Shown one piece after another: positions 4,296 to 59,750 of a stretch of 64,000 bases of DNA. Origin of the DNA: Candidatus Methylacidiphilales bacterium (GTDB taxonomy: Bacteria; Verrucomicrobiota; Verrucomicrobiia; Methylacidiphilales; UBA1321); contig JAJSLI010000108.1 of NCBI GenBank assembly GCA_021272315.1, positions 27,322 to 91,321 of the forward strand. Direction: 5' to 3'. Position numbers and translations under genes: made by a program. The notes under the pieces were generated by a model that worked only from the letters and a program-made list of their open reading frames with translations, was not told where the DNA came from and did not search any database. How positions within the stretch are numbered: the stretch's first letter is position 1; the number at the start of each line of letters is the position of its first letter.

Positions 4296-5327
4296 CTAAT
4301 ATTCGACGCCAAGTTTGATGCTCTTATCCGGCGTTGAAAAAACCTGTTTGTACTCGGCAACCAGATTGTCGGTGAACTTCAACACCGGCGTCACGATCGA
4401 TTCGGCTTTGATGTGACCGTCCATGATCATGCGATGGGCCGTGTTGCGCACGCGCGTATTGTCCCAGCGCGGATGTTCCCGATTCGGATCGCTTTCGGTG
4501 CGACTAAAATGAATGTTTGGACGATTCATATGGGCCTCCGCGCCGAGGTCCAACCCCGCCTTCATGGGACCGGGAAAAGCGCCCAGGACAACATTGCCGC
4601 CGAAAGCGACTCCGCGCAGCGAAGCTTGCAGGGCCTCCATCGCGCCGCTGTACTCGATCACGGCATCAACCCCGCGCCAGTTGGTCGCCTCACGCAACGC
4701 CAGGCCGACGTCTGTTCCAACCGGATTGATGACTTGATCCGCACCCGTTTTTAAAGCCACCTCGCGGCGATTCGCCAGCGGATCGATCGCGATGATGGGA
4801 TGGCAGCCGGCGAGCTTGGCCATTTGCACAGCCATCAGCCCGATGGCGCCCAGACTGAAAACCGCCACGGCGTCACCGACGCGAAGATTGGAGTCCCGCA
4901 ACGCGCTAAGCGCAAATGTGACCGGATCGAGGCAGGTCGCCGCCTTCCAATCGGTATCGCTCCGGATTTTCCAGCTGTTTTCTTCACGGATCACGGCGGA
5001 AGTGGCGAAGCCGCCGAAATAGAGGATACGATCTTTTATGGAATAGGTCTTGATGCCGCTTCCAACCTCCTCGATAAAACCCACCTGCATGTTGCCCAAG
5101 GGAATCGGATAATTCCAGGTCACGCCCCCCGGCATAAACATCTGCTTGGCGGCATCCCACCGCCCGCGCTTGTTGCCGTGGCCGTGAATAAAAGACGCCA
5201 TGGTGCCGTGCTTTTCCGCTCCATGCGTATTGCGGACGCGAATTTGATCCGGTTCGAGCTTCTTCGGCAACTCGTACTCCTGCCAGTCAATGACATTATG
5301 TTCGGTGCAAACAAGGCGCTTGGGCAT
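4296..5327 (-). CDS. Medium-chain dehydrogenase/reductase (MDR) family oxidoreductase, probably Zn-independent
   Basis: GroES-like N-terminus plus Rossmann motif VAVFSLGAIGLMAVQMAKLAG, GVDAVIEYSG; the catalytic CxxD and GHE Zn motifs are not recognisable (AEKHGT, PLGNMQVG). Confidence 0.8.
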   Translation of the reverse strand: MPKRLVCTEHNVIDWQEYELPKKLEPDQIRVRNTHGAEKHGTMASFIHGHGNKRGRWDAAKQMFMPGGVTWNYPIPLGNMQVGFIEEVGSGIKTYSIKDRILYFGGFATSAVIREENSWKIRSDTDWKAATCLDPVTFALSALRDSNLRVGDAVAVFSLGAIGLMAVQMAKLAGCHPIIAIDPLANRREVALKTGADQVINPVGTDVGLALREATNWRGVDAVIEYSGAMEALQASLRGVAFGGNVVLGAFPGPMKAGLDLGAEAHMNRPNIHFSRTESDPNREHPRWDNTRVRNTAHRMIMDGHIKAESIVTPVLKFTDNLVAEYKQVFSTPDKSIKLGVEY

Positions 5328-57646: not shown

Positions 57647-57779
57647 ATTCCTTCTTTAGCCTTTCCCTCGAACAACGTAAATTCTGTTTCCGCCCCCCGT
57701 TCGCCAATCCTGTTAATCTTGTTAATCCTGTCCAAAACTTCCCTTGCCTTCCCCTAAAAAAATTCCGTTAATTCCGTTA
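57625..57779. repeat. Direct repeat copy 2 plus 9-bp tandem units
   Basis: 57625-57697 identical to copy 1; AATCCTGTT/AATCTTGTT/AATCCTGTC at 57706-57732; AATTCCGTT twice at 57761-57778. Confidence 0.93.
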
Positions 57780-57810
57780 CTGCCCTCCGCAGGAGTTCCG
57801 TCAAAAATTC

Positions 57811-57836
57811 AGCGACGGTCATAGACCACCGCTACA
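57811..57836 (-). repeat. GTAG-type REP-like palindrome upstream of mutL
   Basis: Reverse complement TGTAGCGGTGGTCTATGACCGTCGCT; one mismatch to the copy at 58874-58899. Confidence 0.85.
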
Positions 57837-57842
57837 TTCGTA

Positions 57843-59750
57843 ATGAACCGCATCCACCTCCTGCCCGAGCACGTCGCCAACCAGATCGCGGCGGGAGAAG
57901 TCATCGAACGGCCCGCCTCCGTCCTCAAGGAACTCCTCGAGAACGCCCTCGACGCCGGCGCGACGCAGATCGACGTCCAGATCGGCGCGGGCGGGCGCAG
58001 CCTTGTCAGCGTGACCGACAACGGCTGCGGCATGAGCAAGGACGACGCCCTCCTTTGCCTCGAACGCCACGCCACCAGCAAGCTCCGCGATTCCGACGAC
58101 CTCGACCGCATCGCCTCCTACGGCTTCCGCGGCGAAGCGATCCCCAGCATCGCCTCCGTCTCCCGTTTCCGGCTGCGCACCTGCGAGCCCGGCGCCCTTG
58201 CCGGCACCGAAATCGTCATCGACGGCGGCAAGCTGCGCGACGTGCGGGAAACCGGCCTGGCCCCCGGCACGCAGATCGAAGTCCGCTCCCTCTTCTTCAA
58301 CCTGCCGGCCCGACGCAAATTTCTCCGCACCGAGGCGACCGAATCGGCCCACTTGCGCCACGTCATGCTCCTGGCCGGACTCGCCCGCCCCGACGCCGGC
58401 TTCACCCTCACCTTCGACGAGCAGCCCCCGCAGCGCTGGATGCCCGGCGAGGACCTGCGCCGGCGGCTCATCTCCATCTTCGGCCCCGAGTGGATCGAAC
58501 TCACCGTTCCGGTGGACGCCTCGACCGGCGGACTTCGCCTCCGCGGCTTCATCGGCAAGCCCGGCGTCAGCCGCGCCGCCCGCCAGGAGGAGCTTTTCTT
58601 CATCAACCAGCGCCCGGTCGAAAACCGCACGCTCCACTTCGGCCTGCTCGAGGGCTATCACAATTCGCTCATGAAAGGCCGCTACCCGGTGGCCATTCTT
58701 TTTCTCGAGATGGACCCCGCGGGCGTCGACGTCAACATCCACCCCGCCAAGCGCGAAGTCCGTTTTCACGACGATTTCACCGTCCGCCACTTCATCGTCA
58801 AAACCGTCCAGGAGGCCCTGCGCGATTTCTCCGGCGCGCCCGCCGCGAAATTTACTTTTGATCAACCTCCCAATGTAGCGGCGGTCTATGACCGTCGCTC
58901 GAATCCGCCTTTTCCAACAAACCGCCCCGAGGATTCCGCAACTGGAGAAGCAGCAACACCATCTCCATCCACTCCCATCCTTCAAAAGCGGGAAGCCGAC
59001 GACGGTCATAGACCGCCGCTACAGGCCGAAATTCCCGAAACTGCGCGCGCACCCCTCCATCTCGAAACCGAAGCCGAGGAAATCGCGCAGCAACCCACCC
59101 TCGCCCTGCCCGAGGAGACGCTCCCGCAAAAATCGGTTCCGCGCCCGGAACAGCTCATCACCAACCGCCTCGGCCTGCGCATCACCGGCTGCATCGCCAA
59201 TCTCTACATTGTCGCGGAAAGCCCCGAAGGCCTTGTCCTCATCGACCAGCATGCCGCGCACGAGCGCGTCCTCTTCGAGCAAATGCTCCGGCGCATGTCG
59301 CTCCAGAATCCCGCCTCGCAGCAGCTCCTCTTCCCGGTCACCCTCGAATTTCTCCCGCGCGAGGCCGACTTCCTATCCGCGCAGGTCGAAACCCTTCAGC
59401 AGGCCGGGGTCGGCATCACCCCGTTCGGCCCCGGTTCCTTCCTCGTCGACGCCCTGCCCGCCATGGTCAAGGCCCGCGACGTCGCCGGTTTCATCCGCAC
59501 CATCGTCGCCGACCTCCAGCAGGAAGGAGGCGAAACGCGCAAGGGACGGCGCTTGAGCGAGGAGGTCGTCGCCAAGACCGTCTGCCGCCACGCCGTCAAG
59601 GCCAACGACGCCCTCAAGCCCGCCGAGTGGGACCAGCTTCTCCACGATCTTCTCGCCTGCGAGCTTCCCTATACCTGCCCCCACGGACGCCCCACCATGA
59701 TCCAGCTCTCCCTCGCCGAACTCGAAAAGAAATTCGGCCGGGTGCAGTAG
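57843..59750 (+). CDS. mutL: DNA mismatch repair endonuclease MutL
   Basis: QIAAGEVIERPASVLKELLENALDAGA, TDNGCGM, RHATSK, GFRGEA, DVNIHP.KREV, endonuclease motif DQHAAHERVLFE, CRHAVK, CPHGRP. Confidence 0.97.
   Translation: MNRIHLLPEHVANQIAAGEVIERPASVLKELLENALDAGATQIDVQIGAGGRSLVSVTDNGCGMSKDDALLCLERHATSKLRDSDDLDRIASYGFRGEAIPSIASVSRFRLRTCEPGALAGTEIVIDGGKLRDVRETGLAPGTQIEVRSLFFNLPARRKFLRTEATESAHLRHVMLLAGLARPDAGFTLTFDEQPPQRWMPGEDLRRRLISIFGPEWIELTVPVDASTGGLRLRGFIGKPGVSRAARQEELFFINQRPVENRTLHFGLLEGYHNSLMKGRYPVAILFLEMDPAGVDVNIHPAKREVRFHDDFTVRHFIVKTVQEALRDFSGAPAAKFTFDQPPNVAAVYDRRSNPPFPTNRPEDSATGEAATPSPSTPILQKREADDGHRPPLQAEIPETARAPLHLETEAEEIAQQPTLALPEETLPQKSVPRPEQLITNRLGLRITGCIANLYIVAESPEGLVLIDQHAAHERVLFEQMLRRMSLQNPASQQLLFPVTLEFLPREADFLSAQVETLQQAGVGITPFGPGSFLVDALPAMVKARDVAGFIRTIVADLQQEGGETRKGRRLSEEVVAKTVCRHAVKANDALKPAEWDQLLHDLLACELPYTCPHGRPTMIQLSLAELEKKFGRVQ
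58874..59023. repeat. REPIN-like inverted pair of REP palindromes inside the mutL linker
   Basis: TGTAGCGGCGGTCTATGACCGTCGCT at 58874-58899 and its near reverse complement GACGACGGTCATAGACCGCCGCTACA at 58998-59023. Confidence 0.9.

Follow-up and report, generated by a model that had tools for sequence, protein, structure and literature searches.

The 64,000-nt stretch of DNA analysed here (the window) comes from a soil verrucomicrobium whose assembly is 91% complete, and carries the mutL gene listed in Table 1. The predicted protein combines the features of an endonuclease-type MutL, namely a GHKL ATPase, a transducer, a MutL_C domain and the motif DQHA(X)2E(X)4E. Pfam places HATPase_c_3 at residues 25-111 (the HATPase region as a whole spanning about 22-111), DNA_mis_repair at 210-326 and MutL_C at 449-591, and the translation contains DQHAAHE, where the sequence reads LIDQHAAHERVLFE. 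Identity to orthologues from the same genus is 78-86%. In the AlphaFold2 model the domains on either side of the inter-domain linker are both confidently predicted (pLDDT 80-97), the linker itself having pLDDT values below 50 and being devoid of secondary structure; this segment is variable in length and unalignable between congeners. A scan of mutL for sigma-70 promoters found none.

In this disordered linker, between the ATPase/transducer and the endonuclease/dimerisation domains, two GTAG-tagged REP-1 elements stand head to head, forming a 150-nt inverted repeat with arms of 40 nt each that are 83% complementary, lie 70 nt apart and are located where the first-pass annotation had placed them. 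The 24-nt REP-1 core has the layout GTAG-CGGCGGTC-TAT-GACCGTCG-C and was absent from dinucleotide-shuffled versions of the window. From the sequence, each arm can be read as a hairpin of its own, a stem of 9-10 bp closed by a 3-nt TAT loop, and REP-1 has the form of the GTAG super-family of REPs, that is, an imperfect palindrome of 20-40 nt with GTAG at one end. When the 150 nt are folded, a single long hairpin is predicted both as DNA (-40.1 kcal/mol, z = -8.6) and as RNA (-68.3 kcal/mol, z = -9.5), with the two arms pairing in a duplex of ~27 bp. Inverted REPs lying near each other and folding in this way have the geometry of a REPIN, and the GTAG tag, the hairpins and the head-to-head doublets together bear out the initial assignment to REP/REPIN-type elements. 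The repeat is translated without a stop as MutL residues 344-394 (N344-VAAVYDRR ... DGHRPPL-Q394), so that the early description of an element read in frame within the MutL linker, in the manner of the Rickettsia palindromic elements in their host genes, also stands. One of the three frames is open in the orientation of the left arm (again as read from the sequence), and two of three are open in the right arm, where every intact orthologue uses the identical one. The third REP-1 copy, upstream of the gene, fits a terminator-like pattern on the minus strand; a pattern scan found no such site at either internal arm.

Table 1. Features at the mutL locus (positions in the window)
Feature	Position	Strand	Description
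Third REP-1 copy	57812..57835	-	1 mismatch; 7 nt upstream of the mutL ATG
mutL	57843..59750	+	635 aa, endonuclease type; from the ORF list and translation
Disordered inter-domain linker of MutL	58836..59162	+	Residues 332-440; AlphaFold2 model and comparison with congeners
Inverted repeat	58874..59023		150 nt; arms at 58874-58913 and 58984-59023
Left REP-1 unit	58872..58906	+	AAT, core GTAGCGGCGGTCTATGACCGTCGC (58875-58898) and tail TCGAATCC; encodes N-VAAVYDRR-SNP; 0 mismatches to the family core
Spacer between cores	58899..58998	+	100 nt; not family sequence; encodes SNPPFPTNRPEDSATGEAATPSPSTPILQKREAD
Right REP-1 unit	58999..59023	-	Core at 58999-59022, 1 mismatch; inverted, GTAG end outward; + strand encodes DGHRPPLQ

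The first-pass annotation had left room for a motif limited to these three places. This possibility is disposed of by a search of the whole genome, in which the 24-mer was found in 29 copies at up to 3 mismatches and its reversed control in none. Nearly all copies lie a few nucleotides from gene starts or stops, which makes REP-1 a dispersed, mostly intergenic repeat and agrees with the mainly extragenic family that had been anticipated. Among the nhmmer matches with E <0.01, the two mutL arms alone sit deep in a long, homology-supported ORF, two further matches falling in short or unsupported frames. A DNA-uptake sequence was considered and rejected, since the motif flanks a transposase-like gene and numbers tens of copies instead of thousands. 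An assembly artefact was likewise dismissed, the same structure being present in six other independent assemblies.

REP-1 is found in 13 of 14 congeneric genomes (2-138 copies, with zero in G006), in none of the other sampled genera of the family, and in the rest of the order as a single match with 2 mismatches. Head-to-head doublets with spacers of 15-110 nt are common in the congeners, and the presence or absence of individual copies differs between species, an indirect sign of mobilisation. In five congeners, REP-1 flanks in inverted orientation both sides of a ~150-aa HUH/Y1 RAYT gene, whose product has the HUH motif PDHIHLF, the sequence WEYVLQNPVR and a PF01797 match (E = 3.5e-11). Six such loci were recorded (G005:C49, G004:C114, G004:C264, G002:C216, G012:C109 and G013:C17), the congeners' RAYT occupying four different loci and not one syntenic locus. 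The anticipated flanking of a RAYT gene is thus seen in these five congeners, but no cognate RAYT was found in the 91%-complete assembly of this genome. A PF01797 scan returned three genes, none with REP-1 inside about 1.5-2.5 kb; tblastn with four congener RAYTs gave matches of 22-35% identity only, the best of them (31-35% identical) being flanked by a different REP family; and the four sites syntenic to the congeners' RAYT loci have neither REP-1 nor RAYT. Two REP-1-flanked units of ~520 bp (C45:4536-5061 and C39:30011-30561) have the right geometry, but were rejected as RAYT units because they enclose unrelated small low-GC ORFs. It follows from these empty searches that RAYT-dependent renewal cannot be at work in this genome at present, barring a gene hidden in the 9% that is not assembled. 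With 25-29 copies, mainly singletons, and no cognate RAYT found, the REP-1 family looks to be declining in this genome.

The history of the pair was followed by comparing mutL of this genome (G000) with that of 13 congeners, 14 species of the genus in all. Seven species (G000, G010, G013, G005, G008, G004 and G002) have the complete pair at one shared site and in a common frame, each arm with 0-4 mismatches per 24 nt. The clean gap of ~50 aa that had been predicted for close relatives was not seen; as six of the 13 congeners share the pair, its spot and its frame, the insertion is older than the species. The left arm stands alone, at its usual position and frame, in G011, which together with G014, G001 and G006 retains a PPL(Q/H)-LE relic where the right arm would end. 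Arm-less G003, G014 and G001 form one clade with G011 in the MutL protein tree; this tree resolves only that clade within the genus, so that the order of losses is settled only in part. Abundant REP-1 is not sufficient to keep the arms, given that G001, G003 and G014 have 49-103 copies genome-wide and yet none in mutL. Spacer homology is recognisable only with the closest relative, G010, the spacers of the remaining congeners (31-145 nt) being unalignable, and the 100-nt spacer matches that of no other doublet examined; some congener doublets have spacers in common with each other. Among the doublets examined, then, the mutL doublet with its spacer is not a repeated unit copied as a whole, as a REPIN would be. 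When 80 distant MutL genes were scanned for GTAG hairpins, the matches were single and scattered.

The arms have been preserved to a degree that the surrounding sequence has not. Identity at four-fold sites is 0.79 in the left arm, compared with 0.54-0.56 in the conserved MutL domains, and the 24-mer core is also, third-position bases included, the consensus of the intergenic REP-1 copies. In addition, the two arms of G013, G008 and G004 have derived bases (G24 or C22) in common. The persistence of two near-intact 24-mers despite near-saturated synonymous sites exceeds what is predicted for a passive passenger.

These observations are probably best accounted for by an exonised REP doublet (REPIN-like) that was inserted early in the history of the genus, adding ~50 residues to the linker, and whose arms have since been homogenised. 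Under this model a single insertion event would have taken place in the ancestor of the genus. It may have survived on account of a linker tolerant of change in length and sequence, with the left arm's only open frame happening to be the one used. Such tolerance is in keeping with the low pLDDT of residues 332-440 and with a second family, REP-2, that lies in frame in this linker in G013 and G009. The arms would then have stayed near the master sequence of the family as the spacer DNA drifted freely. This upkeep is most likely due to sequence homogenisation, and less likely to selection on MutL; homogenisation could proceed by templated arm-to-arm correction, by gene conversion with other REP copies as donors, or through renewal by the RAYT. 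Where homogenisation lapsed, the arms would have decayed into ordinary linker. What the element gives MutL is probably spacer length and nothing more specific.

The doublet's history may have involved re-insertion or duplication instead of a single event, since both this genome and G005 have a PLH/PLQ-LE motif beyond the intact right arm, on its downstream side. The extreme form of this idea, in which the linker would be a recurrent hot spot (re)entered by REP-1 doublets independently in several lineages with older REP remnants as the target, is rather unlikely. It would explain, besides that relic, why the spacers of most species are wholly different in length and sequence, why the compact G005 doublet (79 nt) resembles the 63-75-nt doublets elsewhere in that genome, and why REP-2 has entered the linker independently twice (in frame in G013 and, in opposite orientation, also in G009), the G013 linker holding a cluster of five consecutive GTAG hairpins. 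However, the left-arm junction (KFTF-x2-12) and frame are identical in all carriers, a TCGAAT tail after the left arm is common to this genome, G010, G013 and G008, the G010 spacer is homologous to that of this genome, and the arm-less species group together in the tree, all of which argue against such a hot spot. If the upkeep of the arms is instead attributed to function, the hairpin could be a cis-acting element tuning MutL expression, with both arms under selection, through RNase III-type cleavage, a pause in translation or transcription, or a RAYT-addressable site, the duplex forming in the mRNA or as a DNA cruciform. Arms that stay near-intact in seven species next to a drifting spacer, derived bases that preserve inter-arm pairing, the highly stable RNA fold predicted and the third REP-1 copy just before the ATG are all compatible with this proposal, which is nevertheless improbable: one arm or both are gone from an intact mutL in six of 13 congeners, the spacer varies from 31 to 145 nt, gene conversion equally predicts derived bases common to both arms, and the upstream copy recurs at the same position in G009 only among the 13 congeners (two of 14 species overall).

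Even less is to be said for selection on the peptide, according to which VAAVYDRR and/or DGHRPPL would be a functional short linear motif and the DNA palindrome its by-product, a reading judged very unlikely. The first-pass annotation had regarded a peptide kept by orthologues without the palindrome as decisive against a mobile-element origin, and this was encountered in one lineage only: REP-1-free G006 retains VAATYDRR, with 8 nucleotide changes and 1 amino acid change (simulated P ~3e-4, for a single lineage picked post hoc from six). This hints at some peptide constraint, and part of the encoded peptide may have been co-opted. On the other hand, the peptide is wholly lost from G003, G014, G001, G009 and G012, the conservation of four-fold sites in the arm is unexplained by selection on a peptide, and the intergenic family consensus is this very 24-mer, down to its third-position bases. 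The suggestion of a mutator switch, in which the hairpin, as a deletion hot spot, would be excised or mis-repaired and mutL thereby reversibly inactivated, found no support and is scarcely credible. Long inverted repeats are generally unstable, a property in its favour. Switching of mutL through 6-bp tandem repeats is known from Salmonella (Chen et al. 2010; PMC2955026), where MutL function changes with repeat copy number and the repeats within mutL are proposed to modulate mutation rate. Those repeats are, however, short direct tandem ones, in contrast with an inverted repeat in a dispensable-looking linker. Moreover, an exact loss of the 150 nt would be in frame and affect only the length-variable linker, congeners with linkers ~20 aa shorter have an intact mutL, and speciation has left the pair in place. 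Among the orthologues compared, neither variant mutL alleles at the element nor precise excision was seen, and no frameshift or truncation occurs there except for a run of N in the G002 assembly. Under a more far-reaching proposal, the linker in this genus might be a long-lived nest of REPs whose hairpins are actively maintained and not just tolerated, with REP/RAYT functionally coupled to the repair machinery. It is suggested by arms kept at the master sequence across speciation, by the two unrelated REP families in the linker and by the published bias of intragenic REPs to DNA-repair genes, and is unlikely to be correct; if it were, MutL dosage might depend on the hairpins, or REP hairpins might be a target of MutL.

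In-frame GTAG REPs lying wholly inside ORFs were described in 2013 (Di Nocera, De Gregorio and Rocco, BMC Genomics 14:522; PMC3733652), and the MutL pair shares these properties. In that survey the most intragenic GTAG REPs were found in a verrucomicrobium, Opitutus terrae, many of the targets were genes of DNA synthesis and repair (uvrA/B, uvrD, polA, recBCD, dnaE2, ligase), and in some species one such gene was the sole coding sequence modified by REPs. The main text does not mention MutL, and searching the supplements for mutL and mismatch repair gave no match. The present case differs in being inherited across a genus (both arms in seven of 14 species), in having arms that remain close to the master sequence despite spacer drift, and in the independent entry of a second REP family into the same linker. 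With REPIN-RAYT systems (Bertels and Rainey 2011, PMC3116915; bioRxiv 10.1101/2021.07.10.451892) it has in common the inverted doublets with a long hairpin, a RAYT gene lying (in congeners) between copies of its REP, mostly extragenic copies and vertical inheritance in the lineage; decay after loss of the RAYT is also a published expectation for REPINs (same sources). However, REPINs are described as almost exclusively extragenic, whereas the MutL doublet is translated, its spacer shows no family-wide conservation, searches of this genome yielded no cognate RAYT, and the congener RAYT is at four loci instead of one syntenic locus. The Rickettsia palindromic elements are similar as in-frame palindromic repeats in housekeeping genes that keep coding (PMC3733652). 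Membership of that group was rejected, given their CGTC tag (PMC3733652) as opposed to GTAG, the unrelated sequences, and hosts that are obligate intracellular alphaproteobacteria and not verrucomicrobia.

In summary, the phenomenon was known already and the gain is incremental, with the MutL pair being real, old and present in about half of the genus. It means that a REP doublet can persist inside a gene of an essential pathway while an entire genus radiates, with hairpin arms that stay near the family master sequence despite a freely evolving protein linker. The genus offers a natural system to study whether gene conversion, templated repair or RAYT action keeps individual REP copies intact, and why DNA-repair genes so often contain in-frame REPs. 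In annotating verrucomicrobial proteins, unusual peptides such as VAAVYDRR and DGHRPPL can be recognised as repeat-derived.

The 150-nt inverted repeat reported in the first-pass annotation was recovered by a repeat search and is indeed read in frame within MutL (N344-VAAVYDRR...DGHRPPL-Q394). Its two 40-nt arms are 83% complementary, with 70 nt between them, and each carries the 24-nt core of a GTAG-tagged hairpin repeat family, REP-1, which was matched in 0 of 100 dinucleotide shuffles. Every REP-1 arm in mutL forms its own hairpin (9-10 bp stem, TAT loop), while the complete unit folds as DNA into a single long hairpin (-40.1 kcal/mol vs -17.5 +/- 2.6 for shuffles, z = -8.6); the corresponding value as RNA is -68.3 kcal/mol (z = -9.5). 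A third REP-1 copy precedes the mutL ATG by 7 nt, occupying the usual place of a ribosome-binding site; it fits a terminator-like pattern on the minus strand and is found at the same position in 1 of 13 congeners (G009). It is adjoined by ATTCCGT-type repeats.

Features in the window (plain positions) and in genomes of the genus (G000, the window's own genome; other G numbers, other species; C, contig; L, fetched locus)
Feature	Position	Strand	Details
mutL ORF, 635 aa	57843-59750	+ (ORF)	Pfam HATPase 22-111, DNA_mis_repair 210-326, MutL_C 449-591
Inverted repeat	58874-59023		
Left arm	58874-58913		
Right arm	58984-59023		
Left REP-1 core GTAGCGGCGGTCTATGACCGTCGC	58875-58898	+	0 mismatches
Right REP-1 core GTAGCGGCGGTCTATGACCGTCGC	58999-59022	-	1 mismatch
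Third REP-1 core GTAGCGGCGGTCTATGACCGTCGC	57812-57835	-	1 mismatch
ATTCCGT-type repeats	57760-57811		
ACGGAATT-like repeats	~57765-57805		
REP-1-flanked RAYT	G005:C49		
REP-1-flanked RAYT	G004:C114		
REP-1-flanked RAYT	G004:C264		internal stop
REP-1-flanked RAYT	G002:C216		
REP-1-flanked RAYT	G012:C109		
REP-1-flanked RAYT	G013:C17		
RAYT orthologue	G008:C305		>50% identical
Best tblastn match to REP-1 RAYT	G000:C85:66934-67317		31-35% identical
Second RAYT-like gene, REP-2-flanked	G000:C85:66823-67378		motifs VLMPDHVHLL, YILQNPVRAGLV
REP-1-bracketed unit	G000:C45:4536-5061		~520 bp
REP-1-bracketed unit	G000:C39:30011-30561		~520 bp
MITE-like copy	G000:C82:53233-53452		
MITE-like copy	G000:C59:2384-2603		
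Five-hairpin MutL linker (L006)	G013:C8, 2536-2728		
Hairpin pair in SNF2-family helicase	G000:C125 ~4811-4870		

REP-1 is not limited to these three places. In G000, a MAG of 3.83 Mb (169 contigs, 91% complete, 58% G+C), 29 copies of the 24-mer were found at <=3 mismatches, against none for a backwards-read control, and their oriented flanks extend it to a longer unit, roughly AAT-GTAG...CGC-TGAATTT. Nearly all copies lie ~5-20 nt from a start or stop codon and are therefore extragenic. Among nhmmer matches with E <0.01, only the two mutL arms sit deep inside a long, homology-supported ORF, two further matches being in open frames of 147 and 295 aa that are short or lack support. At <=2 mismatches, 2-138 copies occur in 13 of the 14 congeners, the genome search finding none in G006. 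The REP-1 family is genus-specific: it is absent from eight genomes that represent other genera in the same taxonomic family and, apart from one match with 2 mismatches, from 63 genomes sampled elsewhere in the order. Head-to-head doublets with outward GTAG ends are frequent in the congeners; their spacers measure 15-110 nt, and some are repeated within one genome. The tag, the hairpins, the doublets and the mostly extragenic location bear out the proposed REP/REPIN-type nature of the repeat (a REPIN being a REP doublet that folds as one hairpin). Another short repeat family, of ACGGAATT-like 8-mers (ACGGAATTAACGGAAT and variants; 6-10 exact copies vs 0 for the control), is spread throughout G000, often directly on the 3' side of a REP-1 unit; in several congeners it is also present upstream of mutL.

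A link to a RAYT, the HUH/Y1 transposase-like gene associated with REPs, was sought in the genus by a PF01797 (Y1_Tnp) scan followed by a REP-1 core scan of the matched loci. This revealed a gene class of ~150 aa, with the HUH motif PDH(I/L)H(L/F)F and the motif (W)xY(V/I)xxNPV, bracketed by inverted REP-1 copies 490-620 nt apart. Because this is the classical RAYT-plus-REP arrangement, the anticipated association holds for the genus (six loci in five congeners, G004 having two copies, one with a stop), but the cognate gene was not found in the 91%-complete G000 assembly. The congener units occupy four different syntenic neighbourhoods (L125, L126, L127, L136 and L142, compared with G000 contigs C33, C25, C74 and C85), in contrast to the single syntenic RAYT locus described in Pseudomonas and enterobacteria; both REP-1 and RAYT are absent from all four G000 sites. 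Decay of the REP population is expected after RAYT loss (bioRxiv 10.1101/2021.07.10.451892), and the REP-1 population of G000, with 25-29 copies, mostly singletons, in an assembly 91% complete, looks like the predicted decaying state. Two G000 units bracketed by inverted REP-1 share the geometry of the congener RAYT loci and contain DNA of low GC content, whose small ORFs are unrelated and code for a 133-aa protein and for a small membrane protein. A MITE-like element of ~220 bp has the first 12 nt of REP-1 as its termini (GTAGCGGCGGTC ... GACCGCCGCTAC); its two copies, in inverse orientation, match at 204 of 220 positions, and single ends of the same types are found elsewhere in G000.

The window's MutL has the endonuclease motif DQHAAHE. 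In an AlphaFold2 model built from an input alignment of 31 sequences, the N- and C-terminal domains are confident, whereas residues 332-440 form an unbroken stretch of pLDDT <50 without secondary structure, which wholly contains the REP-encoded residues 344-394. Linker length also differs between congeners, and a linker of such low confidence and variable length would account for tolerance of the insertion. The left-arm orientation offers a single open frame, VAAVYDRR, and the right-arm orientation two, with DGHRPPL used in all carriers; to judge from the sequence, frame use is forced.

When mutL was taken from 13 congeners (protein identity 78-86%), the gap of ~50 aa expected in close relatives did not appear, since six of them (G010, G013, G005, G008, G004 and G002) carry the same arm pair, making seven of 14 species with G000. 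All two-arm carriers share the junction after KFTF-x(2-12) and the reading frames, with 0-4 mismatches per arm to the core. The core-to-core distance is 31, 97, 100, 121, 130 or 145 nt, and G000 and G010 are the only pair whose spacers can be recognised as homologous. G011 keeps the left arm alone, G006 a decayed left arm (VAATYDRR), and G003, G014, G001, G009 and G012 neither; PPL(Q/H)-LE relics stand at the expected right-arm end in G011, G014 and G001, more weakly in G006. The only well-supported intra-genus clade of the MutL tree, (G011,(G014,(G003,G001))), unites species with partial or complete arm loss. Sister genera show no trace of the REP peptide in MutL and no REP-1 in their genomes. 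The simplest history would be a single insertion in the genus ancestor followed by several decays, which would explain the missing gap.

Four-fold degenerate sites were compared across the six species in which both arms can be read completely. Their identity reaches 0.79 in the left arm, against 0.54 for the N-terminal domains and 0.56 for the C-terminal domain. The first six codons of the left arm (GTA GCG GCG GTC TAT GAC) hardly vary, 0-2 mismatches were counted over the 24 nt of the right arm, and the surrounding linker is not alignable between species. The arms are thus conserved beyond neutral expectation, and selection on the peptide does not by itself account for third-position conservation. 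Derived bases common to both arms of a species (G24 in G013 and G008, C22 in G004) would fit homogenisation, either arm-to-arm or with the genomic REP population. Both arms are kept in 5 of 6 genomes with a cognate RAYT vs 2 of 8 without (G011, whose sole match is 40% identical with an internal stop, counted among the latter), a pattern only and not a test, as the species are related. G001, G003 and G014 have 49-103 REP-1 copies, yet their mutL lacks arms. G006 (L013) points the other way: it has no REP-1 in its genome, and its MutL retains VAATYDRR with a single amino-acid change despite 8 nucleotide changes relative to 58875-58898 (simulated P ~3e-4, for one of six lineages, selected post hoc). 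Retention of the peptide without the palindrome is seen there only, the five species without either arm lacking it.

The mutL element belongs to a REP family associated with a RAYT, is translated as part of a disordered linker and is shared across species by inheritance. The pair is probably a tolerated passenger, its arms kept by homogenisation. The ~27-bp arm duplex may affect mutL mRNA or DNA; a sequence scan of the internal arms found no promoter-like or terminator-like signal. Active maintenance of the hairpins, or their functional coupling with mismatch repair, appears improbable. The suggested mutator switch through hairpin deletion finds no support, as a precise loss would be in frame, orthologues with shorter linkers are intact and none is broken at the element, the sole exception being G002, whose assembly has a stretch of Ns there. 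The original interpretation is borne out in part, and its underlying observation holds.

A second family, REP-2 (GTAGCCGTCGACCGCCGGGCGACGG), has 19 copies in G000 vs 0 for the control and flanks the second RAYT-like gene, the one that gave the best tblastn match there to the REP-1-associated RAYT. It is also in frame in MutL linkers, on the plus strand in G013 and on the minus strand in G009, where REP-1 arms are absent. The G013 linker holds five in-frame GTAG hairpins one after another (two REP-1 arms, one REP-2 and two further types), between KFTF and the conserved LE-x-E-PEP block. In G000, a REP-2 hairpin together with a second hairpin beside it (GSRRPPGDGPPLGQRRLPP) is in frame in an 844-aa SNF2-family helicase, where the two separate the N-terminal region from the downstream SNF2 domain; this is another such case in a DNA-processing enzyme gene.

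REPINs are described as almost exclusively extragenic (bioRxiv 10.1101/2021.07.10.451892), in contrast to the translated mutL doublet. GTAG and CGTC REPs inside genes, often dimers coding 20-30 aa, have nevertheless been reported (Di Nocera et al. 2013, PMC3733652), many of them in genes for DNA replication or repair (uvrA/B, uvrD, polA, recBCD, dnaE2, ligase), one such gene being the sole REP-modified coding sequence in some species; MutL is not named among them in the main text and supplements. In-frame REPs in repair genes being already described, the mutL pair is a further example, to which it adds genus-wide conservation, evidence of arm homogenisation and a MutL linker used repeatedly by two REP families.
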